Made by a program: the position numbers and the translations under genes. A stretch of DNA of 64,000 bases from Podarcis gaigeae (lineage: Eukaryota): the NCBI GenBank assembly GCA_964106915.2, contig OZ066917.1; one strand, 5' to 3'. Shown here in pieces: positions 35,501 through 64,000 of the stretch; the stretch's first letter is position 1, and each line of letters starts with the position of its first letter. Below the pieces are notes generated by a model that was given only the letters and a program-made list of their open reading frames with translations, was not told the origin of the DNA and searched no databases.

Positions 35501-38500
35501 CTTTAAAAAATGCATATAGCAACAGCTGGGGGGGGGGGGAGATACTATCAAGACTGCACCAGACATGGATGAGGAAATTTAACCTTTTCCTCCCCTGGTG
35601 ATATCCAAAGGAAAGTATCTCTTCTGAAGTTGCTATGTGCATTGGAAGGAAAGCCCTCACTGGGGGCAACTTCAAAAGAGACATCTGCTAGTTACTTGAA
35701 GTTGTACCCTCTTCTCTATGAGTACCTGCAAATAGGCTTCATCAGCTGTAAAAAGCCACTCATTGAGATTCAGAACTTTAAAAAGTCTCACAATTTTTGA
35801 AATGAGAGTCAGGATGGTTTAAATACCTCAGCAATGCTTCAGAGGTGATTAGAAAGTTCTTTATTGACTATGGGCAACCATGTGAATTGGAAGTCATAAC
35901 AAACAAACAAAAGAATGTTATTGTTGTACTGTATGATAATCTATAAGGAAAGACATCTTTGACATTATCCGCCAAGGTCTAACCAAATGCCATGAGTGAC
36001 CCAAGCAGACAGTATGGTGACATGGTGAATAACAAAATAGATGTATTGTGAAAGAATTAGGAATGTCCTATGACTAGTTGTTGCCTACATTCTCAACTGG
36101 TGTGTCCTCTAAGTCTTCCATTACATGGCCCAATGCAGGAAACTTGGGCTATTATCAGACAGTAGAGGCTGTCTCGCAGCACACCTATGATGCAGAGAAT
36201 GATATATGAAAAGGTAATTCTTAGTCCCTTTTACAGATAGGAAATGAAGACGGAGCGATAGTGGCTTGTCCAAGGTGATAGCATGGAGGTACAGCTTTCA
36301 GACTTTGATCTCTTACATCCATATGCTATTATAGCTCACAAAATACAGAAATGTGTGTATTTTAACATCTCCCAAAGCATTGCTTAATAACCAAATTCAA
36401 GGTGATATGCATCTAGTTCCACATTGAAAGAAATAGTGGAAAAAACAGATACACAGGAAGCTGTCTTTGCCACTGGTACATTATTAAATTCCTTTCTCTG
36501 ACATTCTGACAGTAATTGCACTGAATAGGATTGAATTTGGTTAAAATTACTTTAAAAGGGTTGTTGAGAATTTCCTGTGGGATGCTATTGCAAGCACCAA
36601 AGCCTTAACTTCATTGTCTTTGTTGTTCTTACTCCCTTAGGAAGCTTAATGCTCATCCTGTTTTTGACAGCATGAAGGCCTCTGTAAATATCTTCTAAAA
36701 AGAAAAAGCTTCCCATATATTGCCATTTGAGTTTGTTTTCTTTCTGTCAGACAAAGAGACAATGACTGCTATCTAATTCTGATTTGAGACTGATGCTTCT
36801 ATGGCTTCAACAATGAACAAACCGCAGGCCAAAGTTTACAGACCTTCTCAAAATGACCCCACAGAGCCAGGACAGGCATCAGAAATGACTGCTTGGTAAA
36901 AGCTTTTGGCTGCAAAAAGAATGTACAGTATTCTTAAAACGGGGTTCTCAATTACAAACTTCATTAGGTCAAGGGAAAATCAGCCAAGCTTCCTCAAACG
37001 TTGCTAGGACAAGACAAACACAGACTGACAGTCCTGGAATCATCTTTTACAATATAATCTGGCAACAAGCAATCCAAAAGAGCATGAAGGCTACAGTACC
37101 CATCTTACATGCCTTAAAGTCCAATTAATGATGGAAGACCCTAGGGAAGCCAATAGCTCCCAAACAAAATGACTGGGCATGGTGACTGTGTTAAAAGGAG
37201 CAGCCCTGGGATCCTTTAGAAGGAATGGCAGGGTAGAAATAAATAAGAGGAGCTACTCTGGGATGCCTAGTGCTTTGGCACCAAAACAGATTCTGAGAAC
37301 ATAACAAGCCCTGCTGCAGCTGACTAAAGGCCCATATAGTCCAGCATCCTATTCTCACAGTGGCCAACCAGATGTCTATGGGAAGCTGACAAATGGAACA
37401 ATAAAAGCACGCTTCCCGCTCTGCAACTGATATTCAGAGGCCCTCAATCTCCAACACTGGGCACAGAACACAATCATAGCTACTAGCAGCCTCTGCTTAT
37501 CCTCCATCAATCTGCCTATCCCCCTTTTAAAGCTGTCCAAAGCTATCCACACTGAACACACAGAACCCAAACAAAAACAAACCATGGGGCAAACTGCACA
37601 TGACAGGAACCCATGAATTTCTTTTAAAGATATTGGTAACCTCACGTCATCTCTTTGGGAAAAACACCCAGGAAGGACTGGATTTTGTGGACAAACATTA
37701 GGAATTAACTAGGTAAACCCTCCTTTTGGGTTCCGATTTACAGCCTTTGATTGTACTTCACTGTTAAAACTCCCCAAACAGAAAATTAGAAAAGCAATTT
37801 GGTGTAATGTTTGCCCCATTGTCCCTTTGAGTTGTTGGGAACGGGAAGGTGAAGCAGTGGGCTCATGTAGTGTAGGAAGAGCTTACACTCCACTGGCAAC
37901 TCTCTGTTCTCTCACAAGATAACAGGATTCATATTATGTGAAGCCGCGGCTTTGAAATGACGAGCTCACGACCCAGAAAATTGCTGGATACTGGTGGACT
38001 GGCTACTAGGTAGCATAAGTGAGAGTTTACAGAACACAGGCTGTGTTCACACATCATTCTAAGTCAAACCACGGTTTAACATGAATGCATGAATGTGCTG
38101 GCTCCCAGGGAGGAGACTGCTTCCATTTTGCTCCTCCTCAATTCTTTCAACTCAACACAACATGGCAGCTAAGATTTGGCTGAGTGTGTCATCTGAATGT
38201 GGGACTGTGCTTAAAACTCTCTCCTCCTTAACCATGATCTGCAGCCAAGAACAAACCTTGGCTAGATATCATGGTTAAGAAGAGAGCTTAACCAAAATCC
38301 CATGTCTGGATGACACACTAAGCCCAGCATCGACTTAACTAACACAGCACACTAAAAACTAAGAGAAAGGAGAATCAGTATGTTCAGGCAGTCTCAGTAA
38401 GCCACAGTTTAGCTTACAGTGTGACATGTGAACGAGGCTACTATGGCTCACAAGGTTAAGGAGGTTTCACTTTTAGGCCAAGTACTGAAAATGACAGGCA

Positions 38501-41500
38501 GGACAAAAGAATAATTATTTCCTTAGCTGAAGAGTTGGATACCTTGAACACTTCTTTTAACCTTAAAATACCAAGTATTTTCATATGACAGTAAAATTTT
38601 CTATAGCTGAATTCAAGGTCATAAAAGTTTTAAGGTTCTTCAATAATTACAATTCACTATTTTCAATAACATGACTCATGTTGATAAGATGACTGAATTT
38701 AATCACTCCTCTCCCTCAATCTAATTATTTACCTACTTTACCACACAAGGACAAATAATTTGTGATAGAGCCGGCTGAATAATATCTCTAATGAATTTGA
38801 TTTTGTTGTTGTTGGTGGAAGTCCTTACCTGTTCTGTTAAACAAACTCAGAGATCATGAGTATATATTGTAAAAGGTCCAGAAGCAAGAAATTCCATCCC
38901 GCAACCAGCCATGTCTTGGTTATCACAAAGAGAGAATGTGAACACCTACAGATCACAGATGTGCAAGTGCTGTTATTTTTAGAGCTGATTTAAAATAACT
39001 TCATCGCCAACTGCACTTAAGGCAAGAATGAATTGTGACTTTCTAAAACATGGATTTAGCACTCCTTTTTAAAGGGTCCGTTATAATTAAAATAATAGCA
39101 AACTGCTTGAATTGATAGGTGACACATAGTGCTTGCACACTTTTAGAGCCTGCCTATAAAGCAACTCTCTACACTCCTGGCTGGATATTGTGCCAGTCAA
39201 CTAAATCACACAAAGTAGAAAAGATAGGTATATAATTTAACCATTGAGGTTGCCTTTTCTGACATTAAGTCTTTCAAACTGGATTACAGCCCATAGTTAA
39301 AACAAAATATAATTTTAAAAAACACTTAAAATTAACCAGTGAACTAACTAGAGTTTGTTTTTTAAAAAACACTGGCGTATCAACAATTAGCAACAAATGA
39401 TAAAAAAATAAAATCGGAGTCCACAAAAGTTCTGTTGCAAAATGTACATTTTAACCAACCACCTGAAACTCTGAACTGAAGAAGAATGATACGATTTCCC
39501 TTGGGAAGACTTTTCACATACAAGTTCCATCTTGTTTTATTTATAACTGCCACTGCTTAATTTATGTAACGACAGATTGATTTTATTAAACTCTTGTTTA
39601 ATAGTTGCTAAATGATATTTGCATCCATGAACATACTGTAAAGATCTCTGTGAAGCCATGGTCTTCAAAAAGCAGAACACTCGTGTTAAATAAATAAGCA
39701 AGCTCACCTGTGAACCACCCCTGCACGATGTAGGTGTTCAACAGCCAAGATAAGCTGCCGGATGTATTTGCGTGCTTCATGCTCTTCCAGCCGCTTTTTC
39801 TCATAGATTTTGTGCATCAAGTTGCCCCCTGGGCACAGCTCCATAACAAGGTAGTAGCTGTTTTCCGTTTCCAAGATATCCAGCAGCTGAGCAATGTAAG
39901 GGTGTCGGATCATCTGCTGGATCTGTCCCTCCCGCCTCAGATTCTTGGTAACATAGGTGTCCTTTTTGGCTCTTTTCTTATCAATAACTTTCACTGCCAC
40001 CTGATGGGAAAGAAAGACAAGCCATAGTTATTATTACTATTCTTGTTATTGCTCCTAACTCGAACTGTTCAATCATAACATTAACCTGAAAAAGCCGGGG
40101 GGGGGGGGGGGAGAAACACAGAAAGAAGGAACTGGATGGGGGGGGAGTGAGAGCTGAATTATACGAATATAATCTTAATCCTCCAGTGATGCGGTCTTAC
40201 ATGTATGGTGTTTGCTTTAAACAATTTTCAATGTTGTGTTTAAAGTTGTTGTTCCTACCCTGGGACCTTATGGTGAAAAGTGGCTAGTACATTTATAAAT
40301 ATTATTATTAATATTAATATTACTGTACCTCCAAATGCAATACTAATTTAATTATGTCCAACACAGTTGGTTAAGTAGCAATTTGTGACTTCTAAGCAAT
40401 CCAATTGGGGCCCAGGTGGCGCTGTGGGTTAAACCACAGAGCCTAGGACTTGCCGATCAGAAGGTCGGCAGTTTAAATCCCTGCAACGGGGTGAGATCCC
40501 GTTACTCGGTCCCAGCTCCTGCCAACCTAGCAGTTCGAAAGCACAAAGTGCAAGTAGATAAATAGGTACCGCTCCAGCGGGAAGGTAAACAGCGTTTCTG
40601 TGCGCTGCTCTGGTTCGCCAGAAGCGGCTTAGTCATGCTGGCCACATGACCTGGAAGCTGTCTGCAGACAAACGCCGGCTCCCTCGGCCAATAAAGCGAG
40701 ATGAGCGCCGCAGCTCCAGAGTCGGTCACGACTGGACCTAATGGTCAGGGGTCCCTTTACCTTTAAGCAATCCAGTTCTAAGCATTTGGTGATCAGCAGA
40801 ACCCTCAAAAGCAAAACCTACAGTACTTAATTCATACCATATTGAATGTTATTTTTCTAATTTACCCAAATAAGTAAATGTGAGGTATCCAACAAATATC
40901 CTTTTATTTTAAATTGACTTCTGTATCTTGATTCCAATTATTTAATTACTAAGCATTTGCATTTACATAACCTAAAAGCAGATTTCTAGGTCACAAGCAT
41001 TTACTGATGTTTATTATGACATCTGTGGTATGAGCAGCAAAAGAATTATGCTAATAACCATTCCTCTTTCGCAGCCTATTTCTTCAGAGTCCTATGGCAA
41101 AGGAAATGATCATACCTTGCAAATGAGATCTATTAGCTCATTGTTCATTACTGCCAGCTTATTAGAATGGAAAAGGGAACTCGCTGTTCTTTCATGCTGT
41201 TGAGCTTTGCACTGAAATCAGTTTAAAAGGTTCCTGCCCATACAAAACAAAATTCAAAGTGGTGAAGACTCTTAGTTTAGTGGTAGAGCACATAGTCTTC
41301 ATGCAAAAAGCATCATGGGAAAGTTTAATCCCCAGCATCTCCAAATGGGACTCTAGCTTTGACGGACCCCAGACAACCTATCCTTCGGCAGGCCAACCTA
41401 CATAGCTGCAACGGAAATGTTTCAATCAGTGCTGGTGCCTGGGTCTAGCTACCCTTTCCCATGATGCTTCTGACCATTGCGGAACACTGACATGATGGCT

Positions 41501-47500: not shown

Positions 47501-50500
47501 TTATATGTAGATAGGAGAGAATCCTTCATGCTTTTTGAAAGAACAAACTACTGTTCAATGCAGAAACACAATGGAATAAAAAATCAATGAATCAAAAAAT
47601 GGAAAGAATATTTCCATTCAAATGCATTTGCCTTCAAATATAAGTTGCAACAAATTTTAAAATATGTAATTATTAAAATTACATATTTTAATGTCAACAA
47701 CAGACACACATGCATCCCATAAAATCATTTATCTAAAATCTAAATAATAGTCATTCAAGTCAATGAAGTCACATGCATTCGCAATGCTTTCTCTAGCATT
47801 AAACTTTGGTAAAGCCAAAGGTTTCTACTTTATCGCTGACTTCATTGTTGTTGTTATATTATTCCGATAAATATTATTTCATTCTGCATGCACATCAGAA
47901 CCTGCAATTCTTTGTTTAGGGCAGAGTTCGCTAATCCTGCACCCATGGGCACCAGATTGGTGCCAGCCCTGCTAGAAAGAAAGATATTGGGCAAATTAGA
48001 GTGGTGTGGCTACCTTGCATATTTTTCCTAGTGCTGAAGAATGTTCCCTTTTGTTGTTAGACAGCAACAGCAACAGCATCATTGTGTGTGTGTGATGATC
48101 TCGATAATCGGGACCAACAGGATACAGCTGACTTCCTGTGGTAAGCATAAGGCTGTTGGGAGTGGTTGTCTCTCTAATTTTGTGTTATGCCACAGTCCCC
48201 ATGGCAGCCATTTTGTTACTGATGCCGCCATCACTATCAAAATTTGAAATGTGCCCACTAGGTTGGCAATCCCTGTTTTAAGTCATTAAAAATCCCTTCT
48301 AATTTACCAGGCTATGCTAACAACCTTCCCCTCACGACAACTGTCCATTCCTTCCCTCCCTCTTTAAAGTGGGAGACAGGAGAATTACTACCCCCACCCA
48401 CCCCTGAAGCAAGAATTACGTTTCTCATATTATAGTATCAGCAACAGAAATTTAACATCTGAAGTAAGTTAATTTGCTCAATAATTCACCAGATATTTTC
48501 CAAACAAGGATTCTGGCATTACATAAATAATGTGAAACATGCATGCTCCTTGTGCCATTAAAAACTAGAAATCCAGGTTAAGCTTAAAATACTGTTGACA
48601 AAGAGGAAAGGAATTTCAATGGGCAGTTGCAGAAATGAATGAGGAGTCTTGTGCATGATTGCTGTGACAGATGAAATACCTGTTAAGACAAGCATGGTCT
48701 GTTTCCTTTTGTTGACCAAAGCTGAATACTGTACATAACTGCCCATGAAGTAAATCAGGTTTCCAACTGCTATAAAACAGAGGTTTTTCTGGTCCTTTTA
48801 AGTTAGATGAACTAAGAAAACACAGAGCTCAAATAAAGCCAAACAAAAGTAATGCCTGGGTCACAAATGTATCCTACCTAGCTGGTTTTGATAATAGAAC
48901 AACTAGACTTTTTAATGTTGCAAATGTCTTCTGTCACAATGAGATAGATGAGACTTCTCAGATTACATGTGGCAAAACAAAAGCAGAAAACCCATGCCAA
49001 GTAATAATGTTATTTTAATAGTCAAGCCTAACGTGAAAATACTTGTTTGCAGAACTTACAAAATGACAACATTAATTTATCTATAAGGATACATGTAAAT
49101 GTTCCTATTTGAGATGTGGTGTTGAAATGTACATTTAGCTATTCCAAAGCAGTAATGACTCACTGTTCTTTATAGTTTTTCTACAGCAAATGTATGCCAT
49201 AGCAAAACAGTAGTACTGCTCTTTTGACACACAGGGGATTTCAGTTCTGGTATTACCAGCTATGCTGAATTATGGACTTGGGCAGCAGGATGCTTCAGTT
49301 GTGCGCACACAAGCTATCTTCCTCTCACTCTTTTGCCCCAGTGTGCTCCTGGACAATCCAGATGCTCCACGAGAAACACAGAAATTACTTGCATGTAAGT
49401 AGACTGGCTGCCATTTCATGTTGTCAGCTGGGGCATTTGTTCACAAGTATAACTGTTGACGAAGCGGGCTAAAGCTAGGCCCTTGACACAGAAGACGCGA
49501 ACCTTGCCATGCAAGGAAGTCAACAAGGCTATGTTCCAGTTGTTAATTTGGATCCCATTTTTTTCTTTCTCAGGGAACAGATTAGAAGCTCGAGAGGTAG
49601 CATTCTCATTTTGAAATGGCATGTTTCAAGTTGAAGCGAACCTTCTTGAACACATCTGCTGCCAACAAAGGTTCTAATTAAACTGTTTTTATAAGAACCT
49701 AACCTGTTTCACTCAAAAAAGTGTGTTATTGATAATGTTCTTAGCACTGTTTTTGTTCAAATATTACTTGAGCATGGGGCTCAAATATCTGATGAGGGCC
49801 AAGTTACATAGGAATGCCTTTCCACCTCTTTATAGGCAACTCCCAATTTACGTGGGGGTTATGTTCCAAGGCACCACGTGTTTAAGTGAAATTGTGTATA
49901 TTTGAAACACCATTGGAAAAGGTGGCAAAATCAGAAGAGCGCTTGAGATCTCATCCTCATGTACACCTCCGTCTTTAAACTTTTCCAGGTATCTGTATGT
50001 GACAGACTAGCTGTCATTTCCCAACAGGAGAAGTAAAATGGAAAATGAGACGTATTAGAGCACATTATGCACCATTGGTGCTCTATGAGCTGGGTGCCCC
50101 CCTCCTGCATTTCTAAGCCAGAAAAGGGCTTGGGCTGAATAAGAAATCATGAGAGAGAAAATTACGCAACAACGAGCTTTCTTTCAGGTTTACTTCTCCG
50201 TTATACATATATTCACAAATCTGTCCTTCTGCCCCCACTCCATCTTGTCCTTCCAAGCTAAGAAAATCCAGAGGAAAGAGATACAGAAGGCCATGCAAGG
50301 AAAAGAGTTCTCTCTCTCATTTTTCTCTTTGGGCAGATGTGTTGGAGAAAGGGGGACAAAGGAAAGTTCTTGCTCCCTCACCCTCCACACTATACACAAC
50401 CAGTGACTTTATATAGAATATTTTATGAAGCTTTATAGCAACATCTCAGAATTGACCAATGAATATGTCAGTGTTCTCCCTGGTGTAACTAACTTCAAAA

Positions 50501-53500
50501 GGACTTCAAACCTAAATGAATCCAGTGGAGGGCATGCTTTAACTAACAAAACATTTATATACAAAAGCATGACTTCAAGAACAGGCATACAACCTTACAC
50601 ATCATAAAATTGCAAGAAATACAAACACATACAGAAGAAACCAGATGTGATTTTCACATAAGAATTCACCTGGTGTCAATTTAACCTAAACACTGGAATA
50701 TTTCCACCATCAGCCATCCACAAGTGAAATGATTATATGCGCAGGGGGTGGGGAGCTGAGGCTCTACCAATGTTCACTGCTGAAGATACTGTAAATTTGA
50801 AAGCAGATTACCTCAAGAGGATAAGTACCTGCCACATGTGCATTAATTCAGTCTACTGCAGAACACGTTGAAAATTTCAGCGGAAAAAACATTAATATGA
50901 ATTTCCTAGAATCCAGGCTAGGTTTGCAGACAATAGACTTTAATAGTAAATACCATTTCCCTTTCTAGAAACATGCAGTGTAGGATGACAATTTTAAATA
51001 GGCTTGTTACTTGAGTAGCCAAGGAAAGAACTGATTATGTAACGAATAATACACAGGTGACTGCACCTCAGCAGCGTGGTGCTTATCCTGACTTAAACAT
51101 TAAGCTATTTAAAATTTCCTGCACATGTTACGTCATGCCACCTTACCAAAGCAATAAGCCCTATCCCCTCCCCCACCATACAACCACTGGATGTGTTTTA
51201 AAACAACATATGACCTTTCTTGAAATATGACATTTGCACAGATTTAATATATATAAAAATTACAGCATCAATTGTGCCATATTAGACAATATTTCCTGCC
51301 ACAAGGTTCTATCCTTCTAATGCTGGCAGTTAGTCAGGTTTTCAGAACAAGAATGGCCTCCCATTGAACAGGCGGGGATGCTGCTGTGCACTGGAAGTTT
51401 TTGATCCCCATTCTGGCCACCAGGGTGACATAAGTGATTGGTACAGGTGTGTGGCCAGGCAGGCTAGTAAAGGTATTTGTGAACCTATTTGCAAGGCTAC
51501 AAAACCCAAATGGCTGAACGGGGAATGTTGCTTGTGCAGCAACGTTCTGTAAAACTTCCCACACACTGGTCAGAGTTCCAATGCAACTGAAAAAGCTGTA
51601 CAGTACCCCAAACTTAGGGGACCACTGGTAGGAAACTCTGATTCGATTCAGCAAGTGAAGTTTCTTTGAAAAAGCAGAACTGTGGCAGGCCTGGTTCAAA
51701 TGCAAAAGCCTCTGGATGCACAGATAATGTACTTTAGATCCCAACAACAACATTCAGACTTGAGATTTCTTTCCATTAATCCAAATTTGTTGCGTTTGTT
51801 CATTTTTAATAGGTCTCAGAAAAAGATAAAAATGTGTTTTTATTTATGTCGAGGCTTATATATCGAACAAGTATCTAGACAGGAAACAAAATACAGCATA
51901 AAAATATTTAGTTACATTTCACATTTTACAAACTTGACAGTATCTTTACAAATGAACAAAGAATCAACATTTGACCAGATTTAAGCCCACTTTTGCAGAT
52001 TGGATTTTGTGGTTAATGATAAAATTACAGGCAAATGAGGACTGAAAGGAAGTTACAATAAGGCATGGCAATTCTTACTGTGATATAAAGTTATTCATCT
52101 CATTTAGTCTGCTTGGGAGGAATGTGCTATCAAAAGATTAAGCATCTGTAACAGGAAACTTGAGCCAGGTGATCAAGTTCCTCACCTACATTGGCCAGCC
52201 AGAGGGATGGCAGCTTATACCATTCTTCATCCTAATTTAGTGTAAGAAAATGAGGAGAGAGGAAAAATTCCACTGGCTGTTTTATATGTTTTACAAAGAA
52301 TTTGTGCCTAACACTTCCCTTTAAACTGATGGTGAAGAAAATCACACTTTCTTTCTTTAAAAGTGTGTGTACAGGAAGTAACTCGGAGGGAATTACAAAA
52401 GGAAAACATGGGAAGATTAAATTTATCCGATGAAACAAAAACAAAGGAGCAAAGACACAATATTACCATTTTTGAAGTGTTACTCATACCATCCAATTTA
52501 GTTAAGGGGTTTCTTTCTTACATTCAGGGCTTGCCTGTACTGTACCTCCAAAATAAGTAGTCATAGAAACCCTGCCTGGCTTGATTATCCACTTTAAGGC
52601 CACTATATTGAGTGTGGTGGATTAAAGCCCAAATGCAAAGGAAAACATGATCACCAGGTCTCACCAATATGCAGTGTCTACACACTGAAATGTAGTTGCT
52701 GCTGCCCTTCTACTGGTCCCCTTACCCGCCATTCTCCCCTGGTTGCTGCTATACAAAAACATAGTGCTGCTCACTACAGCAGGCAGGAAGAGGGAGGAGA
52801 GGGCTGACGGAAGAAGACTCTACAGCCTCACTCTGACCTGGTGCATTTAAAGATGCATTCTCCACTGCTGGGTGAGGTCCTGGAAAGCCACCATAGAGCT
52901 AATTAATGATGGGATAATCAATAGCACAGTGGTTTAATGATAATGCACATATAGCCCAATAATAACCAAGGACCTTGATGCATCTTATATAGTTTCCCCC
53001 TCCTGTCCTGACAACAATACTATGAAGTACCATATTTTTCGCTCTATAAGACGCACCAGACCACAAGACGCACCTAGTTTTTGGAGGAGGAAAACAAGGG
53101 AAAAAATATTCTGAATCTCAGAAGCCAGAACAGCAAGAGGGATCGCTGCGCAGTGAAAGCAGCAATCCCTCTTGCTGTTCTGGCTTCTGGGATAGCTGCG
53201 CAGCCTGCATTCGCTCCATAAGATGCACACACATTTCCCCTTACTTTTTAGGAGGGAAAAAGTGAGTCCTATAGAGCAAAAAATACGGTACATTAGCCTG
53301 AGAAACAGGGATTGTCTGGAGGTCACCCAGCAAGCTTCACGGTTAGGTGGAGACTTGAACCTTGGGTCTGACACATATATAAACAAGCACATGTAATAAT
53401 CACAGTGCACAAGACTGGATTATCTCAAACACAACAACTACAGGAGAAATATATCTGAGGAAGATTACACTTTTGCCAGCATTTTTACTAACTAAAGCAA

Positions 53501-56500: not shown

Positions 56501-59500
56501 ACAAACCTAGACCCTAGTTTGTAATGCCCTACTCATGCAAAGGGGTCTCTATGCAGTCAAGGGGTAGCAGAACCATGCCACAGGTCTCATCTGTGAGGTT
56601 TACCCTGCCTTGACATCTAGGTATTACCCATGGATGTCTGCATAGGTGCACACCAGGGGCAGAGAAAACAATTTAATCTTGGGGAACATCACAGACCAAC
56701 TCTCCCTTGATTACATGGAAACCCCATCATGCGAGTAACACATAAAGAAGGCTACGGATTAGGAAGATTCTGCAGCATATACTCTTAAATAGTCTAAAAA
56801 TTTGCTTATCCAGGAAGAGTACAGCACTGTCATTCCTGTGTATGTCTTATCTCTTATGAGCCCTGATGTCTTCTGTCTGTATTACTGAAGATGAAGTCCA
56901 GTCTTAGATGAATGGAAGCATAAAGAAGTCTTGCTTTCTTTAAAGCATGTTGTAAATTCAGAACTATGTGTGTGTGTAGTCCTGGGATAAGTGGACTGAT
57001 GAGGCAGATTCACTTAGGCGAGAAGGCAAGAGAAAAACAGAGGTAGTAAAGTGCCTACTCTAGAATCATATATGAGCTCTCATGAGCCTTAAATTATTCA
57101 GTCCTAGTCCAGCTCCCTGTTGTCAGCCAATAGAACTGTTGCCCAAATAAATCTTGTTTAATTAATGGTATGAAACCTAGTTAATTGTTTGATTGATTAA
57201 ATTAAATTAGTTTGCATATGAAAAATAGGGGAAATACGTTTGTTTTTAGATTATGCAGTGGGTATAATCTTAGAAAATGCATTCTGCCTCCTCAGAATGA
57301 AGGGAATGCTTGCAGTATGTAGGTAGTATAAATATTAAAAATAAAGTTTTTACTTTTTTTAAAAAATCATCTGCTTGATAAATCAAGGGCACCTTTCTGA
57401 TTGACATAAATATGTTAGTTGATAAATGGATCTACTAGTTAAATATTTCTGCCACAACAACATCTAAGCTTGATGTTCTTCTAGCAACACTTCTATATCT
57501 ATTTTCTCTTGCTGTCCCCAAGAGATTGCTTTAACTGCTGTTCATTTAACCTCTGCTTTTACAACTCTCCTGATAACAAGGGCATGACCCATCGTTTTAG
57601 GAACACAGCACCAGATGACACTATGAAGCATATATGAAATAACAACTCGTTACCTGAACCTGATAATTCTCTGCATGTTTGCTTGGAAGCAAGATCCATG
57701 AAGCTCAGTGAGATTTAGTTTTGAGTAAACATGTACAGGACCAGACTGCATGTACAAAAGAAACAACATGTTTTATTGTGTTGGCATCTGTTTAGTAAAA
57801 AAAAGAACCTTCAAATGACTAAAAATGAGGTAGACTGTAAAGAAACTTTTTTTTTAACTAAAATAATATGTGTTGATTACAAAGACTGATCCTACAAGGA
57901 TTTACTTGGTTCAATGTGGCTTACTTCCAGGTAATGTGAACTGTGACCTTAAGCATATTTAATAACCTGAAGCATATTTATTTAGTTTATATACTTTTTA
58001 GAGACCCCATTCAAATGGTGCATTACCACAATGCATAAGAAAATTCATATTTTTTATGAAAATTAAAATACTGAAAATCAATAAAATTTAAAACAAACAG
58101 CAAGAGCTAAACGATCAAGTGAGCGTCACTAAAAGGATGATGAGAAGCTGAGGATGATGTCTGAAAGGAAATCAAAGAGGGGGTCATATGCACTTCATGG
58201 AGGAAGAAACTACAGCTGAGGAGTCAGCGCTGGAAAAGGTTTGTCCCTGATACCCACTAGCAAGTTAGCTCATTAAGGGAAAGCAACAGAGCAGGGCCTC
58301 TACTGTCAGCCCCAACACCTGGGTAGGTAAAAATGGTACTTCAAATTAATTGGTTCCAAACCATTTAAAGGTTAAGAACATAACATTAAACTGAGCTTGA
58401 ATATGAATAGACAGCCAATGCAACTGGCAGGGAATAGGTGTACATGATCAAAGCGCTTGACTCCCAAAAGCATCCTGGTGGCTGTTATATGCTATTTGGA
58501 TCTTCAGAGACAGCCCATAGTGATCTAACCAGAAACACTTCTGAAGTTTAGCCATACAAGATATCTGGATCACTGGGTCACACACCACAATTACCCAAGA
58601 GTCCAGTGTCGCTGTCAAGCATTAACCCACATACCTGTTTGGTAAGAGTTTCCAAAATATTCTGGAGTTGTCAGCTTTAAATCACATTTTGGAGTTGTCC
58701 TGGAATGGCCCTACTTATTTCCCTTACACTACCATTTAAGTGTACGTGGTTTAATTAAGCATGGTAATTTGTGTCATATACTATTGAGCAAAGCTGCATG
58801 TTATCAACAAAGTTATTATATTTAGAGCACACACTGAATAATGCCAAAAGCAAGAACCTTTCTAGGTGCGGTTGTCACCCATTCGTTATGTCAAATCCAG
58901 ACACAGTCTGTATTGAGCGTCTGTTGTAGTGTTATTGCATCTTCGCAGCACTAAATGCTTTATTTTTACTAATTGGAAAATGCATAACATATTTACTGCA
59001 AAAGCCTGGGCAACTACTGATTACTGTGTACTTTGCTATGGCCACACAACCTCTGTGTTTTTGTGTGTGTGGCATAGTCTCTATTGGACCAACAGCCTCT
59101 ACACTATAATAAAAACAGAAGGTAAAAGGTAAAGGACCCCTGGATGGTTAAGTCCAATCAAAGGGACTATGGGGTGCGGTGCTCATCTCGCTTCAGGCCG
59201 AGGGAGACGGCGTTTGTCCGCAGACTGCTTTCTGGGTCATGTGGCCAGCATGACTAAACCGCTTCTGGCACCGAGGAACAGAACACACGGAAAAGCTGTT
59301 TACCTTCCTGCAGCAGCAGTACCTATTTATCTACTTGCACTGGTGTGCTTTTGAACTGCTAGGTTGGCAGAATATTGGGCTAGTTGAGCCTTTGGCCTGA
59401 TTCAGCAGAGTTCCTCTTTGGTTCTTAAGGCAGCTTACATGTCACATTAAAAAGCACAATCCTATGCATGCTTATACAGTGATTAATCCCATTACTGTAT

Positions 59501-60450
59501 GTTCAGTGGAGCACAATACAACCATTGCACACAGGTATAGGATTGTGCTGTCATATTTTTTTAAGTGCCACAAGGCATTACTGCATTTGGCCACCTCACA
59601 TTTTAGGTCTTTGGTGGCTCTCTTCTCTTGGTGCACCTCAACACTGGAATACCCCTCCTGCTATGTGTTTTGTTTGTTGATTACTGTTATTATTACCCCT
59701 TGCCATAGGAAGAATCCCACGCACGGAAAGCGCGGGGGGCGCTTGCCCATTTAAGCAAAAAAGCCAGCGCTAGAGCTCTCGTCCATCCTTATTACAAAGG
59801 ATAGGAAGAGAACCGGAGGGAGAAGCGTCTGGGCGAGCGGGAAAGTAGCGAACAGCGGCCCCTGGGGGGCGACTCCCTGACGGGAATTTGGGGAACGCGG
59901 CGCGCGAATAGACAGAGCGAACGGGCGAGGCGGCGGGGGACTGTCGGGGAAGAGGGAACCGCTTGACCGGCCATTCAACCAAATTTCGGCCGCGGGGGGG
60001 AGGCTGGGACGGTACTGGGACAAAGCGGCGATAAGCAGGCAACTGCCCGAAGCAGTCCGGGCAGCGGAATAGGCGGCGAGGTCGCCTCACGTGGGGCCAC
60101 CTCAGGGGCAACAAAGCCTGACTCGGTTCATATGGCGGGAAAACAAAAGGCTGCCCCCCCCCCTCGAGCGCGGGGCGAGAGCCAAGTACCTTTTCTCCGG
60201 TCACGACGTGCAGCCCTTCCCGCACTTTGGCGAAGGACCCCTCGCCCAACTTCCTTCCGATCAGGTAATTGCCCACGCGCTTGGTGTGCTGGAACTCGCG
60301 GAGCCGCTCCCGGGACGCGGCCGCGTTGACCCAGGCGGCCAGGAACGTCCCCTCGGGGCTGAGGGGGGGCGTCGTGGGCTCGTCGCCGCCGTCGCCGAAG
60401 CTCGCCGCGGGGGGCTCGCTCAGGAGCCCGTCGCCAGCAGCCGCCGGCAT
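6706..60450 (-). CDS. HUNK: HUNK serine/threonine kinase, spliced CDS join(60190-60450,39708-40000,34422-34477,31570-31705,29832-29959,20654-20783,16148-16316,11642-11722,8647-8824,6706-7373), 699 aa; a possible extra small exon lies between 8824 and 11642
   Basis: Exon lengths 261+293+56+136+128+130+169+81+178+668=2100 nt, all GT-AG and phase-compatible. Kinase motifs [23 protein letters not shown] and [13 protein letters not shown] are present. The N-terminus [10 protein letters not shown] and the C-terminal block [21 protein letters not shown] match HUNK as I recall it. Confidence 0.96.
8380..8555. repeat. Two adjacent copies of a short (~80 bp) squamate palindromic interspersed repeat (ATCCTATGCA...TAC...GGAGTAA.CCCA.TGAA...AGGATTG type)
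   Basis: The same motif recurs near 17290-17555, 43437-43500, 57667-57750, 57888-57935, 59457-59545 and 62325-62405. Confidence 0.6.
8647..8824 (-). CDS. HUNK: HUNK penultimate coding exon ([20 protein letters not shown]...[25 protein letters not shown])
   Basis: Acceptor TTTTAAATTTGAAG|GAC; donor G|GTAAGT; 178 nt; DKK.KEQE and TQIQ.TKALL match HUNK. Confidence 0.92.
11374..11402. repeat. (TTTA)n microsatellite, probably a retroposon tail
   Basis: Directly visible. Confidence 0.9.
11460..11534 (-). CDS. HUNK: Candidate HUNK exon 9 ([25 protein letters not shown]), uncertain
   Basis: CAG|AGG ... GGG|GTAATC; 75 nt, phase 0-0, open. It loosely resembles mammalian ASLDTWTRDLEFHAVQ (from memory), but the acceptor lacks a polypyrimidine tract. 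Confidence 0.3.
11642..11722 (-). CDS. HUNK: HUNK coding exon 8 ([27 protein letters not shown])
   Basis: Acceptor TTTATCCTTCCAG|AAG; donor GAG|GTAAAC; 81 nt, phase 0-0; IEKY...YE resembles mammalian IEKYRAPKESYE (from memory). Confidence 0.85.
13572..13608. repeat. (AC)n microsatellite
   Basis: Directly visible. Confidence 0.95.
14233..14869. mobile_element. PIF/Harbinger-like MITE interrupted by an L1 fragment
   Basis: TAA followed by GGCTGCATACACA; perfect 26-bp inverted repeat at 14236-14261 and 14841-14866. Confidence 0.7.
14381..14816 (+). mobile_element. L1-type LINE 3' end (ORF2 C-terminal remnant plus 3' UTR) with TSD
   Basis: Remnant [13 protein letters not shown]...KFKDHL resembles squamate L1 ORF2 ends; flanked by AAGGTAACAAA (14370-14380) and AAGGGAACAAA (14817-14827). 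Confidence 0.7.
15937..16140 (-). mobile_element. L2 LINE 3' end with (TAA)n tail
   Basis: (TTA)n run followed by GCCCT...GGTCTCAGGGCGGTTCACA, the same terminus as 54740-54795; the distal part resembles 55660-55725. Confidence 0.75.
16148..16316 (-). CDS. HUNK: HUNK coding exon 7, UBA/SNH domain ([56 protein letters not shown])
   Basis: Acceptor CTCTTCATTTAG|A; donor AGA|GTAAGT; 169 nt; UBA-like M..LGY motif of AMPK-related kinases. Confidence 0.94.
16594..16625. repeat. (AAAT)n microsatellite
   Basis: Directly visible. Confidence 0.95.
18373..19264. mobile_element. Tc1/mariner (Tc2-like) MITE, 892 bp, with internal GC-rich minisatellite
   Basis: TA TSDs at 18371-72 and 19265-66; TIRs CCGTATTTTTC...GAAAAATACGG; repeated subterminal ATAGGACGCAC motifs. 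Confidence 0.9.
18480..19100. repeat. GC-rich minisatellite, ~117-bp unit, about 5 copies with one partial duplication
   Basis: Anchor CCCAAGCCT at about 18482, 18561, 18731, 18847 and 18965; each unit consists of two palindromes. Confidence 0.9.
19699..19883. repeat. Degenerate inverted repeat (old MITE remnant)
   Basis: TGTTGCTCACCTGCC pairs with GGCAGGTGAGCAACA; CATCACTGCTGGTTCCTGA pairs with TCAGGAACCTGCAGTGATG. Confidence 0.6.
20003..20095 (-). mobile_element. CR1 LINE 3' end
   Basis: TTAGAATCTTAG..TTGGAAGGGACCCAAGGGTCATCT.GTCCAACCCCCTG is the reverse complement of the CR1 terminal stem-loop and octamer tail. Confidence 0.8.
20508..20551. repeat. (AC)n microsatellite about 100 bp from the exon 6 donor
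   Basis: Directly visible. Confidence 0.95.
20654..20783 (-). CDS. HUNK: HUNK coding exon 6 ((A)[42 protein letters not shown](R))
   Basis: Acceptor TGTCTTTACAG|CG; donor AG|GTAAAC; 130 nt; kinase subdomain XI. Confidence 0.95.
21030..21176 (-). mobile_element. Old tRNA-head SINE with CR1-like tail (similar copy at about 30085-30270)
   Basis: AACATATGAAGCT.CC...ACTGAGT.AGACCA.TGG...TAGCCCAGTACTGTCTAC.CTGACTGGCAG pattern. Confidence 0.55.
22549..23166 (+). mobile_element. LTR-like segment
   Basis: TGTG...GACA bounds with a pyrimidine-rich repetitive U5-like region; no TSD found. Confidence 0.35.
25380..25558 (-). mobile_element. tRNA-Asn-derived SINE with CR1 tail, 5' end folded back into an inverted duplicate
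   Basis: CR1 tail at 25380-25450. The head GGCTGTTAACC.GAAGGTTGGTGGTTCGAGCCCAC matches the 3' half of tRNA-Asn(GTT), with inverted arms at 25468-25508 and 25518-25558. Confidence 0.75.
26455..26586. mobile_element. Old hAT-type MITE
   Basis: Internal inverted symmetry CCAGATATTGTGGACTA...TAGTTCAAAACATCTG, typical of short squamate hAT elements. Confidence 0.5.
26757..27018. mobile_element. hAT-like MITE
   Basis: Termini CAGTGGTAGCTGATGCTCATTAG and CTAATGGACCAGCCTCCACTG are imperfect inverted repeats; the TSD is only partial. Confidence 0.55.
29832..29959 (-). CDS. HUNK: HUNK coding exon 5 ([42 protein letters not shown])
   Basis: Acceptor CTTCTTTTACAG|T; donor G|GTAAAT; 128 nt. The reading frame differs from the ORF-track call at this locus. 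Confidence 0.96.
31570..31705 (-). CDS. HUNK: HUNK coding exon 4 ((D)[44 protein letters not shown](I))
   Basis: Acceptor TTTTTCACAG|AC; donor AT|GTGAGT; 136 nt; DFG to APE activation segment. Confidence 0.97.
33862..34062 (+). mobile_element. tRNA-derived CORE/MIR-like (Squam3-type) SINE
   Basis: A/B-box-like head, CTGGGTGACCTTG..CCAGTCA...CCTACCTCACAAGG core and TATAAAT tail. Confidence 0.75.
34422..34477 (-). CDS. HUNK: HUNK coding exon 3 ((R)[18 protein letters not shown](D))
   Basis: Acceptor TGTCTGTTTCAG|A; donor G|GTATGA; 56 nt; catalytic loop. Too short for the ORF track. Confidence 0.96.
37298..37540 (-). mobile_element. CR1 LINE 3' fragment (related fragments at about 17205-17290, 44810-44865 and 46668-46772)
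   Basis: AACATAA.AAG..CCTGCTG...GAC.AAAGGCCCAT.TAGTCCAGCATCCT.TTCTCACAGTGGCC. The 44810 fragment encodes [12 protein letters not shown] of CR1 ORF2. Confidence 0.7.
38039..38438. mobile_element. Old Harbinger-like MITE
   Basis: Termini GGCTGTGTTCACACATCA and TGACATGTGAACGAGGC; internal AACCATG.TT motifs. Confidence 0.45.
39708..40000 (-). CDS. HUNK: HUNK coding exon 2 ([25 protein letters not shown]...AGVVHR)
   Basis: Acceptor TTTCCCATCAG|GTG; donor AG|GTGAGC; 293 nt; kinase subdomains II-VIa. Confidence 0.97.
40407..40763 (+). mobile_element. Full-length Sauria SINE with 14-bp TSD
   Basis: tRNA-like head GGTGGCGCTGTGGGTTAAACC, body GTAGATAAATAGGTACC and (ACCTTT)n tail; TAAGCAATCCAATT (40393-40406) and TAAGCAATCCAGTT (40764-40777). 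Confidence 0.93.
45293..45523. mobile_element. Tigger/pogo-like MITE nested in the terminus of an older Tc2-like element
   Basis: TA TSDs at 45291-92 and 45524-25; TIRs CAGTGGCACCTTGGGTTA and TAACCCGAGCTACCACTG; internal TAACCTGAA repeats. Confidence 0.85.
53030..53288. mobile_element. Tc2-like MITE, short (259 bp) member of the 18373-19264 family, inserted into a MIR-like SINE
   Basis: TA TSDs; CCATATTTTTCGCTCTATAAGACGCAC...CTATAGAGCAAAAAATACGG; shares both ends with the long copy. Confidence 0.9.
55470..55616. mobile_element. Short hAT MITE (147 bp)
   Basis: TIRs CAGTGCTTTTTT and AAAAAAACACTG; 8-bp flanks GCTATAAC and GCAGTAAC (6/8 match). Confidence 0.7.
55660..56068 (-). mobile_element. 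L2 LINE ORF2 C-terminal remnant
   Basis: Translation [25 protein letters not shown] is the characteristic L2 C-terminal motif. An older L2 relic lies at about 57975-58520. Confidence 0.8.
59119..59371 (-). mobile_element. 5'-truncated Sauria SINE
   Basis: (AAAGGT)n tail plus GGTCATGTGGCCAGCATGACT and TACCTATTTATCTACTTGCAC, the reverse complement of the 40407 copy. Confidence 0.9.
60190..60450 (-). CDS. HUNK: HUNK coding exon 1 ([10 protein letters not shown]...[31 protein letters not shown])
   Basis: ATG at 60448-60450 in context AGG-ATG-C; donor AAG|GTACTT; 261 nt, phase 0; glycine-rich loop. Confidence 0.96.
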
Positions 60451-60451
60451 C

Positions 60452-60470
60452 CTGCTGCTGCTGCTGCTGC
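60452..60470 (-). repeat. (CAG)6 repeat immediately upstream of the HUNK ATG
   Basis: Plus strand CTGCTGCTGCTGCTGCTGC next to CAT at 60448-60450. Confidence 0.9.
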
Positions 60471-63172
60471 TCCCGCCGCCGCAACTCGGTGCAATCAATG
60501 CCTTCTCTTTGCAACCCTTGCTGCGCCAACGAGCTTCTGAGAAACTCGCTTCTTTCTTTCTCTAGCTCCTGCTTCTGCTCCCGCTACTCCCCAAATTCAA
60601 GTCTGCAGCACCAGCCTGCCAATGTGATCGGCACCCGCGTGTGCACGTGGGGACCCGACGGCGGCTGGCTGGCTGCTGAGGCGCACTTTGCCTCTCAGGG
60701 AAATGTCAAGCAAAGAGCAAAACAAGCAAGCAATGAAAAAGCAAAATAACAGAAAAGAAACCCGCTTCGCCAACGGGGTCTGGTGGAGATCTAGCGCGAT
60801 TCGGCCGCCACGAGGAACTGGCCCCGGATCACAGCCGCGCAGCTTTGCAGCCAGGTCCGGCGAGCTGCGAGGCTGAGGCTGTGCACGCCTCACGTTGAAG
60901 AGGGAGCCTGAGCCAGCTCCCGCAGATCAATTGTCTCCAGTCTCCGTGGAAGCCCGTTGGCTGCCTTCCCCTCATTGGATCTGTCGATCACTTTCCCCCT
61001 CCCTCTCGTACCGCCCCTGGCTGCCTCCTTCTCCTGGTGCTGCTGCTTGAGGCTCTCTTCCCCTCTTGCGGAGAAGAGTCTGGGGAGGCGGGGGGGGGGA
61101 GGAGAGAAACGTTTCATTCAGGCTAAATTGGCAGTAATTTAATCCGATCCCTCTGCTGAGAACAGATGCAATGAAAACTCGACAGCAGTCGTGGTCCTTT
61201 AGAAATTCGGGCAGCTCCCCCTGCCTCCCCGTGTTTTTGGTGTAATGCAGATTCAACCCTAAAGCCAAATCGCATCGAGGAGCCCCCTTGCCAGCGAGTT
61301 ATTTACGCCTTCAATTCACGAAGATGCTGCATTTCTCTCTATAATTAGGGCAGTCAAGCCGTGACAGGCGCTCTGCGTGACTCCTTTCGGAGCAAAGCCT
61401 GGTTTATTTTTCTCAAGATCTCTTTTATTCCTTCCCCGATAATATTTTTCTTGTGTTGCTTTGTGCCCCTTTTGTGCTTGAAAGCACTTCACTTTGCTTT
61501 CACTTCTTTGCGGGTGACATGTGCTCCAGAGCTCAGATCGTGACAGCCCTGGCAATAAAAGCATAAGCGGTCCCCACCTCCCCTTTCTGTTGTAAGAAAT
61601 TGAGACTGAAAATGCAGTTACCTTGGCAGCTTAAAGCAAAGGAAAGCCCCGCCTTATATTATACATTATTTTTATTTAGAGCTGCAGCCTCCATTTTATG
61701 TTCTCAGCCCTCTTTTAACAATTCCCAACCTCAGCTTTAGGAAGCATTACATCCTTCATTCTAACTGCTATCTTAAAACGCTCCACACTTCCACAATGCA
61801 ACTTGAGTAAATATAACTACATACAGGGACTATGAATAGTTGAGGAAAGTCACAACTATTGCTTGTGCAAGACAAACTCATAAATAATATCAATGCCCCC
61901 CCCCCCCAGGGCAAATAGAGACAGCCAATCATCCCCTCCATGTGCACAAATCACATCCTAGGCCTTTATTGAGAGTCTGCCAATCCTCAGGTGCCTTTTT
62001 TGGGGGGGATGCAGGAGGCAGGACTGGCAGGCAGGTCCCCCTTTCACTACTGGACTTCTACTTGCGGAGCTTTGGATGCCATTTATAATTAATTGACAAT
62101 TTGCTGTCCTTTAATGGTACCCCCAGATCTGCTACCTGCTATCTCCATCAGAGTGCATTTCGACGAAAAAGGCAATTGCTGGCATCAATAGCCCTAATCC
62201 TTTCTGCAAATGTTGTAATTGCAATACACTCCGTGTGACAATTACCCTGATCACTTGCTGAAATTACTAATTCCATAGTTAAGAAAAGCTTTTTATATAG
62301 AAGTATACAGGAAAAAAAGCTGAAATCATATGCTTTTGTTTACGGGAATTAATCCCTCTGAACTCAGTGTGACTTATTTCTGAATAAACACCCGTAGGAT
62401 TGGGCTATATAAGAATCTAATTTTGTTCCCCCAACGTAGTCTAATGGTAGGTCTGATGGTAACGTAACCTTAGCTTGTGTGCTGATACTGCAAAACTTTG
62501 CATACACCAATAGTACTATCACTAAGTCTTTTAATTGTGATATTTTAATAAGCCAATCACCCTACATCGTATCCCAAGGCTGAATATGGTTCTCATTACC
62601 TGTTTCCATATTCAGCACAGCACAGTAGCCATAAGGTACCTTTTCTACAAATCTAGTTCATTTCTCTCCCAGCTATGTGCAGGTTTTTCAGTTGATATTG
62701 GCCCCCTGAAGATTCAATAGACTGAAGCACTACTTTCCATCTGCCTTGCGTTCTTGTGTTCTTTATCCCAAGCCTCATATATAGTGCACTTAGATCTGTT
62801 TCGCATTGGTTATAATTTGTTCATTGCCAGCCTCTACAGGGATCCATAGGGCTAGTTCCAGATCCATAAACAGAGTGAGAGCTTAAGAGTACATCACAAG
62901 GCAATAATAAAAATAGATAAACAGGTGTTTTATTTGCTTCATGTTTTTATTGTGGCCAGTTTATTTAGCATAGCTGTTACATCAAAGAAAGACATCATCT
63001 GGTCGTATTCATTGATCCAAGGGTAATATGTTAACTTCAACTCTAGAACATTAAAGGAAGTGTTTCAGTTATTTTAAAAACTGGGATTTCCGCAGGGTGT
63101 TGAGTGTGTTGTGAGAACAGGGATCAAAAGTCAATTGCCTGCCCAGTTCCAAACCAGGACTGTAGAGAGAGT

Positions 63173-63383
63173 TACAGATAGGTAGCCGTGTTGGTCTGCC
63201 ATAGTCAAAACAAAAAAATTCCTTCCAGTAGCACCTTAAAGACCAACTAAGTTAGTTCTTGGTATGAGCTTTCGTGTGCATGCACACTTCTTCAGATACA
63301 CTGAAGAAGTGTGCATGCACACGAAAGCTCATACCAAGAACTAACTTAGTTGGTCTTTAAGGTGCTACTGGAAGGATTTTTTT
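63173..63383 (-). mobile_element. Penelope-like element remnant: pLTR 3' end plus inverted partial copy, with 12-bp direct flanks
   Basis: TTAGTTGGTCTTTAAGGTGCTACTGG...AGACCAACACGGCTACC resembles reptile Penelope termini; perfect 76-bp arms at 63220-63295 and 63301-63376; TGTAGAGAGAGT at 63161-63172 and 63384-63395. Confidence 0.85.
63262..63299 (-). ncRNA. Minimal type I hammerhead ribozyme motif (Penelope-associated)
   Basis: Minus strand GUAU-CUGAAGA-A-GUGUG(CAUG)CACAC-GAA-AGCU-C/AUAC: stem I GUAU:AUAC, CUGANGA core, stem II, GAAA, palindromic AGCU stem III and UC cleavage site. Confidence 0.7.
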
Positions 63384-64000
63384 TGTAGAGAGAGTGGTCT
63401 GAGGATAAACATGTAATGGCATCAGTGTTTCTGTTCTCTAGCATAGCATTCATGGGGTTCAGTTATTTGCCATAAAATTTTTAGAAAAGATAAGTGCGGT
63501 ATGATTGTCTTGAAGATTTGGGAAATTAAAAAAAACATTTTGCAGATAAATACACCTTAGCTAATGAAAAATGGAGCCTTTCTGTATTCCAAAGGAAAGT
63601 GAAAAAAGCCCATTGGACTATTTTCATGAAACAGATCAGTGGCACCGAAACAGGCAGATTCAAAAGTATATCAGATGGTGGGAGAATGTTGACTTTGGTA
63701 AGTATTCATACACACACTATATTAATAGTTAAAATTTCTAACTCTAAATATGTGGCCACTGCTTCCATTTTATTAATTCAAAAAGACTACACAAGGGTGA
63801 TGTCTTTAAGAATATAGTGTTTGTATGCGTACCCAAAGAGGTGGCCAAACTGATTTTGGGAGCAATCCAATGCAGAAGCAGCTGGCATAAAGCAAGCCAG
63901 TGTAAATGAAGCCAAGATAAAGTTACACCAGATCCAAAACCCATTCAGTAATGGGGCTGCTGCTGCTCTCTCTAAATCTGGCAGAGCAGTGGCCGACCTT

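Follow-up and report, generated by a model that had tools for sequence, protein, structure and literature searches.

Architecture of the insert and its genomic setting

The 64-kb window (the whole stretch of 64,000 nucleotides that was analysed) carries, upstream of a kinase gene, a short insert built as an almost perfect palindrome. Its arms (63220-63295 and 63301-63376, 76 bp each) are exact reverse complements around a 5-nt loop, ATACA, and the pairing continues outwards to 63210-63386 with a single mismatch at 63219/63377; as RNA, this hairpin folds with a z-score of -24.4, and none of 200 shuffles folds equally well. A 12-bp direct repeat, with copies at 63161-63172 and 63384-63395, encloses 211 bp. 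The arms, the loop, the extension with one mismatch and the repeat had all been described in an earlier reading made from the sequence alone (hereafter the sequence-only reading), and our re-analysis recovered every one of them. The insert consists of two terminal fragments of the element, each of them 5'-truncated, in a head-to-head arrangement (Table 1). At its left end, three bases of the duplication match the element, a possible primer-template microhomology. The window holds this single inverted pair and no further copy of the element, and none of the other palindromes in the window contains a hammerhead core.

The kinase gene is read on the minus strand, with its first exon beginning at 60450. 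The insert is 2711 bp away from this point, on the upstream side of the gene; it falls outside the exon examined and about 1.8 kb beyond a CpG-rich stretch. The exon, which we take to be that of HUNK, resembles AMPK/MARK/Snf1 kinases (best E 9e-4), and a Pfam search with its 88 residues returned 0 families.

Table 1. Coordinates of the insert, its parts and the neighbouring exon, numbered along the window
Feature	Position	Strand	Remarks
Target-site duplication, left copy	63161..63172		Last 3 bases match the element family too
Long arm: 5'-truncated terminal-repeat fragment, including the tail	63173..63305	sense on -	Family-native up to 63305
Tail, long arm only	63173..63212	-	40 nt; 37 nt when the 3-base microhomology of the far end counts as element
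Minimal hammerhead motif	63262..63299	-	Descriptor match, folding, consensus of PMC4209133 Fig. S3
Pivot: native 5-bp inverted repeat TTCAG-ATACA-CTGAA	63291..63305		Inversion junction within 63300/63301-63305
Short inverted arm, tail-less	63301..63383	sense on +	Hammerhead copy without the 5' strand of stem I
Target-site duplication, right copy	63384..63395		First 3 bases match the element too
AMPK/MARK-like kinase first coding exon (context, outside the element)	60190..60450	-	CpG-rich stretch at about 59600-61400

A minimal hammerhead motif on the minus strand

A relaxed descriptor of the minimal hammerhead (stem I of at least 3 bp, CUGANGA, stem II of at least 4 bp, GAAA, UH) matched the window once, on the minus strand at 63295, and had 0 matches in 100 block-shuffled windows. 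In the minus-strand copy, stem I is formed by 4 bp between 63299-63296 and 63265-63262; C3 to A9 of the core occupy 63295-63289 and are followed by an extra A at 63288, stem II at 63287-63274, G12 to A14 at 63273-63271, a palindromic AGCU at 63270-63267 and C17 at 63266. The consensus features present are the extra base between positions 9 and 10.1, the G10.1-C11.1 pair, GAAA, the palindromic 15.2-16.2 and UH. As read from the sequence, the predicted cut falls at 63266/63265, where the sequence-only reading had placed it. In the plus-strand copy, AUACA replaces UGUAU before the core and no stem I can form, which agrees with the claim that only the minus-strand copy keeps this stem.

The check that had been proposed for the motif gave a divided answer: the descriptor found its one minus-strand match, and the Rfam hammerhead models found none. 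Across the whole insert, the Rfam covariance models returned 15 matches at E up to 10, with the hammerhead absent among them, and on a single arm they returned 2, both attributable to chance and neither a hammerhead; this silence of the hammerhead models is probably due to the missing stem III. G12 and C11.1 belong to one CpG and are mutated in 13-17% and 11-15%, respectively, of the summed family depth, similar rates that look like unselected CpG decay in dispersed copies.

Predicted folding of the transcripts

Folding predictions agree with the proposal of the sequence-only reading that the hairpin masks the ribozyme. Holding stems I and II in the full read-through RNA is predicted to cost 58.8 kcal/mol, and the predicted probability that the core is unpaired stays below 0.01 in either of the two full read-through RNAs (that is, the core is paired at more than 0.99). 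Any read-through RNA would, on these energies, form a 76-86 bp duplex that buries the hammerhead. Since each strand carries one sense copy, a dimer cannot form in cis. For two free monomers, the best predicted pairing runs through the palindromic stem II (-30.6 kcal/mol), as against -11.1 kcal/mol for the double hammerhead, with the proviso that nearest-neighbour energies ignore tertiary contacts and protein. In published work, minimal hammerheads are described as inactive as monomers and weakly cleaving as dimers (PMC4209133), and the hammerhead of an Anolis element is reported to cut only with protein and to be dispensable for insertion in vitro (PMC11167929).

The further suggestion that an RNA lacking the antisense arm could cleave itself fares less well, in that such an RNA would still be without stem III and a second copy would be needed. 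Where the RNA begins also matters in the predictions: stems I and II form in one that begins at 63300, and one starting at 63305 favours a hairpin over the core, by 1.6 kcal/mol only. The RNA spanning 63255-63305, which had been put forward for cleavage assays, would have to be shortened, as it carries the five native bases predicted to pair with its own core. The stem-loop of the tail folds no better than shuffles (z 0.63).

A recent insertion from a very high-copy family

We compared the contigs of 4 of the 23 listed sequencing runs with positions 62600-63960. In two related species (runs X4 and X9, organisms B and F), whose flanks differ from the window at 16 and 15 of 1054 letters, a single contig joins 63160 directly to 63384, and the 12-mer is present once at this empty site in both of the two species compared. 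This identifies the 12-bp repeat as a genuine target-site duplication and makes it probable that the insertion postdates the splits from those species; the description of the insert as young in the sequence-only reading holds for both related species compared. Both junctions are present in the two same-species samples, X1, which is possibly the source sample, and X3, which comes from another sample and study and shows 3 differences in 1194 letters. Flank contigs from these two samples cross both junctions and extend 20 and 24 letters into the element. With a contig counted as bridging only if it has at least 31 letters on each side, the palindrome centre at the 63161-63395 locus is spanned by none of the listed contigs of the four runs. 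For the exact loop the evidence is the assembly, whereas contigs support the finding that both element ends point outwards.

The family to which the insert belongs is very high-copy, roughly of the order of tens of thousands. In the four runs, the depth summed over the insert amounts to 0.5-3.1 million, compared with 12-44 for the flanks (depth is not equal to copy number), and 9,078-12,765 contigs per run match the insert. Evidence on where family copies end and how they are joined comes from selected subsets, namely 24 of 1192 loose-end records and 15 of the 174 listed joints. In the former, copies end at 63170 in 75-96 contigs per run and, in a second cluster, at 63206/63212 in 38-51 contigs per run, with unrelated flanks beyond in both cases. 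These two clusters lie about 40 nt apart and coincide with the two outer ends of the insert. On the 5' side, 51-75 contigs per run stop at 63299, where stem I begins; the next consensus letter beyond it is C in all four runs, as a copied cap would give. Another 38-49 contigs per run continue beyond 63305 into conserved upstream sequence; hence TTCAG-ATACA-CTGAA is native to the family and the inversion junction lies inside this 5-bp repeat. The five bases upstream of stem I form the end of a pyrimidine-rich run that has the shape of a 3' splice site; in D. virilis, an intron end is described as meeting helix I of the hammerhead (PMC4209133).

Head-to-head copies are common in the family, and some of them pivot near the same point. 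Each of the 15 joints shown (of 174 listed) leads from a left-type arm into a right-type one, and the place of the joint varies. Six of these 15 resume at 63301/63302, and 9 of the 15 have 2-4 shared letters. Among the 9 listed records that cross the centre, 4 have at least 31 letters on each side. One of the 4 comes from X4 and another from X9; as these two lack the insertion, pivots near the centre must recur at other loci. At every listed site that is polymorphic in the family, the two arms of the insert agree. The mismatch at 63219/63377 corresponds to two spellings of an A-tract, both of which are found in the family (in loose ends behind 63215).

Relationship to published elements

Taken together, these observations point to a young, probably functionless insert of a very high-copy reptile Penelope-like retroelement, and we consider it very probable that it is an ordinary stub of that kind. 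Its architecture is one already published for Penelope-like elements, and its hammerhead closely resembles a published turtle motif. Hallmarks of Penelope-like insertions found here are the inverted, 5'-truncated head-to-head copy, the palindromic junction, the one-sided tail of 30-40 bp and the short duplication. In the published accounts, inverted pLTRs are described whose head-to-head junctions are palindromic, together with a 31-bp tail on one side and duplications of 8-10 bp, and self-priming is proposed (PMC3846280); an inverted 5'-truncated copy with a 30-40 bp tail is called typical and the tail is read as the outcome of endonuclease resolution (PMC8557442); and a tail of 30-40 bp is also described for the Anolis element (PMC11167929). 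The insert shares head-to-head 5'-truncated copies, a junction palindrome and a tail at one end with the inverted-pLTR units of EN+ Penelope-like elements as these sources present them (PMC3846280, PMC8557442, PMC2377424), and it differs from them in its reduced form, the arms having no ORF between them. Its duplication, at 12 bp, is longer than the 8-10 bp of the published Penelope-like cases (PMC3846280).

The motif from the turtle Chrysemys picta bellii (PMC4209133 Fig. S3) has, by eye, the same CUGAAGA core, extra A and G10.1-C11.1 pair, and has in common with the insert a 5-bp stem II, a 4-bp stem I, GAAA-G-C-U-H and the lack of a loop 3. The two differ in stem I (GCAU/AUGC in the turtle, GUAU/AUAC in the insert) and by one compensatory change in stem II; in the insert, a 4-nt loop makes stem-loop II wholly a 14-nt palindrome and C17 replaces U17. 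Unlike the turtle motif, the hammerhead of the insert is locked in an antisense duplex. The row for the turtle motif in that figure carries no ORF-association mark. We infer Penelope ORF parentage from architecture and motif, which are also what supports the Penelope-like origin proposed in the sequence-only reading.

The closest mechanistic parallel that we can draw is with Poseidon PAc of Anolis carolinensis (PMC11167929), in which the hammerhead is followed about 90 nt on by an internal start of reverse transcription, and two such starts bound the tail. The spacing compares as follows: the tail of the insert ends 93 nt after the cut site, and the main start in PAc lies 111-118 nt into an ORF that is cut at +26. 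PAc differs from the insert by eye in sequence and in hammerhead, and the insert has no start codon at the same place. We considered identity with Poseidon_Ac and rejected it, as the published pLTR-ORF junction is, by the same kind of comparison, unlike the insert; PAc is on our analysis a model for mechanism and a separate family. Non-LTR retrozymes were also considered; these are described as short, non-coding, hammerhead-bearing elements related to PLE pLTRs and present in reptiles (bioRxiv 10.64898/2026.07.22.740005), but they form head-to-tail tandem units, whereas the insert is a single head-to-head pair. In the open-access literature we found neither a description of the repeat family of the insert nor its core motif as text. 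The pattern of the hammerhead core retrieved 0 stretches from metagenome contigs and 0 from viral contigs. The tail pattern retrieved 71 metagenome loci, which we dropped as chance (longest alignment 27 bp). EN+ Penelope-like elements are mobilised by a telomerase-like RT with a GIY-YIG endonuclease, the ORF being flanked by the repeat; these scans of metagenome and viral contigs yielded no RT or GIY-YIG ORF to link with the family.

Route of insertion

Two routes to such a stub deserve weight. We lean towards priming from both target ends, in which the element endonuclease would cut the target with a 12-nt stagger. Reverse transcription would then begin from each target 3' end, helped by 3 bases of microhomology, at one or other of the two internal start sites of the family, which lie about 40 nt from each other. 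The two cDNAs would extend toward the 5' side of the RNA and come to a halt just past the hammerhead; their near-identical ends would anneal at the native TTCAG/CTGAA repeat, since two such ends can join only through an inverted repeat, and fill-in would yield the perfect palindrome, with the hammerhead as a passenger. With both proposed primers at 3'-end sites of the family, both outer ends of the insert would be 3' ends of the element. We infer that two-ended priming of this kind needs no additional step to explain both outer ends, the tail and its pivot, and the microhomologies. There is precedent in the Anolis element, which is reported to nick and extend both strands and in which the tail is delimited by two internal start sites of reverse transcription (PMC11167929), although these data on two-site priming concern a different family and were obtained in vitro.

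A related scheme is the twin priming of LINE-1, in which cDNA synthesis is primed on both strands of the target and leaves an inversion with a microhomology joint. The insert would depart from that scheme in the fixed position of its two priming sites, both close to the 3' end of the family sequence. We found no application of twin priming to Penelope in the open-access literature.

The second route is a serious contender, if the less probable of the two. A single cDNA primed at the tail would fold back on its own 3' TTCAG/CTGAA hairpin, copy itself and be resolved at the second end site. The cDNA strand of 63270-63305 does form a 5-bp hairpin at its terminus that leaves the 3' end free (z -2.5, equalled by 7 of 200 shuffles), and the identity of the arms over 76 bp, family-variable sites included, is explained by self-copying at least as well as by two-ended priming. 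Self-priming is, moreover, the published reading of such junctions (PMC3846280), and endonuclease resolution that of the tail (PMC8557442). However, an extra step is needed for self-copying to stop at the second end cluster with a 3-base microhomology to the target, and the mismatch at 63219/63377 matches two A-tract spellings of the family, a point weakened by the fact that a later mutation would fit too. The later steps of the Penelope cycle are called unresolved by two of the sources (PMC11167929, PMC8557442), and a genome-wide tally of stubs could decide between two-ended priming and self-priming in that cycle. On its own the locus is of minor importance, yet it is a tidy specimen that combines, in 235 bases, an empty site, two ends that would be microhomology-primed, a one-sided tail and a native pivot. 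The same tally could also show the supply of perfect dsRNA from such stubs in reptiles.

The neighbouring gene and the question of function

The sequence-only reading had seen in the insert a self-silencing ribozyme cassette next to a host promoter, that is, a ribozyme or dsRNA module acting on the kinase promoter via Dicer, ADAR or conditional cleavage. We regard such a functional cassette as very unlikely. What speaks for it is a perfect duplex lying about 1.8 kb from the CpG-rich promoter region, the presence of the insert in both same-species samples, which may also be compatible with fixation by selection, and the heavy A-to-I editing reported for lizard Penelope, at more than 40,000 sites (PMC5625713). 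The insert is absent, however, from both related species compared, and is one of very many similar copies for which proximity to a gene is expected by chance. If the depth ratios are near right, the family has a rough density of about 1 copy per 25 kb (the 64-kb window holds 1), from which, by a rough estimate, about 1 in 10 start codons would have a copy within 3 kb upstream. The shape read as a cassette is a routine insertion product of the family, as its joints and the published cases show (PMC3846280, PMC8557442), and its closeness to a start codon would fairly often arise by chance. The hammerhead, furthermore, has no dimer partner in cis, and free monomers are predicted to pair through stem II instead. 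The masked core, the one sense copy per strand and the CpG decay in the family together make a regulatory cassette unlikely, and the insert itself probably lacks a function. More generally, the editing of transcribed Penelope hairpins in lizards is plausible.

Other readings of the palindrome

A long perfect hairpin flanked by direct repeats could also be expected of a non-autonomous DNA transposon (a MITE or fold-back element) or a microRNA precursor, and the hairpin does have 14 Rfam microRNA matches by E-value. All of these matches, however, fall under their gathering scores (best 63.6 against 90 bits) and reflect the shape of the hairpin; against a MITE, the inverted repeat stops short of the left end, leaving the 40-nt one-sided tail, and other family copies break at many different places with no fixed structure. 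Either identity is, in our judgement, more improbable still than a regulatory cassette. An assembly artefact is the least credible of all the readings: the absence of a listed locus contig across the centre and the short reach into the insert would allow one, but independent contigs from the two same-species samples run into the element across both junctions, its ends facing outward, so that an inversion is needed between them, and the empty site accounts for the duplication.

A possible lock-and-pivot motif in the family

The insert as an ordinary Penelope-like stub leaves room for a more speculative proposal at the level of the family, which we think rather doubtful. The five bases that the family carries upstream of stem I might act as an inbuilt lock, pairing with the core of the hammerhead until splicing or an RNA start at stem I releases it, with the same 5-bp repeat serving as the pivot at which cDNAs primed from opposite target strands would join. 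If this were true, one motif would gate the ribozyme, set a preferred 5' end and seed many perfect hairpins that feed ADAR. Counting for the lock are the copies that end at 63299, the hairpins that the repeat is predicted to form as DNA and over the core as RNA, the intron end at helix I in D. virilis (PMC4209133) and a like 5-bp pairing visible by eye in PAc (PMC11167929). Against it, the predicted margin in its favour is small (the 1.6 kcal/mol given above), and pairing between the five bases and the core is absent from the predicted centroid fold of the 133-nt arm.

We also considered, and rejected, a general anti-core hairpin across minimal hammerheads; by eye, about 10 of the 56 motifs in Fig. 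S3 of PMC4209133 have at least 4 such pairs, which is about the number expected by chance and tells against the lock as well.

Family copies ending at stem I

The first base of stem I of the minus-strand minimal hammerhead motif (63299) is the exact end point of 51-75 family contigs per run in four sequencing runs. Beyond these ends, the flank consensus begins with a C in all four runs, which have insertions in common, with an overall agreement of only 0.35-0.39. This C could represent a copied cap base that marks the start of the RNA. On the minus strand, the native sequence of the family upstream of stem I (63300-63305 and further upstream) is rich in pyrimidines and places a CAG immediately before the stem, a combination that resembles a 3' splice site. 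In the copy at 63161-63395, a comparable pyrimidine-rich tract is supplied by the inverted arm.

Other palindromes and repeats

Further palindromes, dispersed repeats and transposon-like elements are distributed across the window (see table). The hammerhead core was not found in the second fold-back palindrome, close to which the segment 25387-25451 resembles 20004-20067. The two related elements resemble non-autonomous DNA transposons, and the first of them contains a GC-rich array with units in both direct and inverted orientation.

Palindromes and repeats found elsewhere in the window
Feature	Coordinates	Match	Remarks
Second fold-back palindrome, 97 bp	25465-25561	91%	within SINE- or LINE-like fragment
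Imperfect palindrome	38178-38324	72%	older or AT-rich
Imperfect palindrome	47657-47691	91%	older or AT-rich
Inverted repeat pair	1-170 with 1162-1331	94%	
Direct repeat pair	800-896 with 1375-1470	92%	
Inverted repeat pair	40519-40764 with 59125-59370	83%	
Further repeat	63842-63960		depth about 20-50 times flank; starts 450 bp past insert
Two related elements	about 18400-19270 and 53030-53290		similar ends, internal palindromes

Surroundings of the insert

The start codon of the AMPK/MARK-like kinase on the minus strand is immediately preceded by six GCA units (about 60451-60470). In run X9, from a related species, a 23-base duplication-like insertion accompanied by a 7-base loss lies at 63113-63136, roughly 50 bases away from the unoccupied insertion site.
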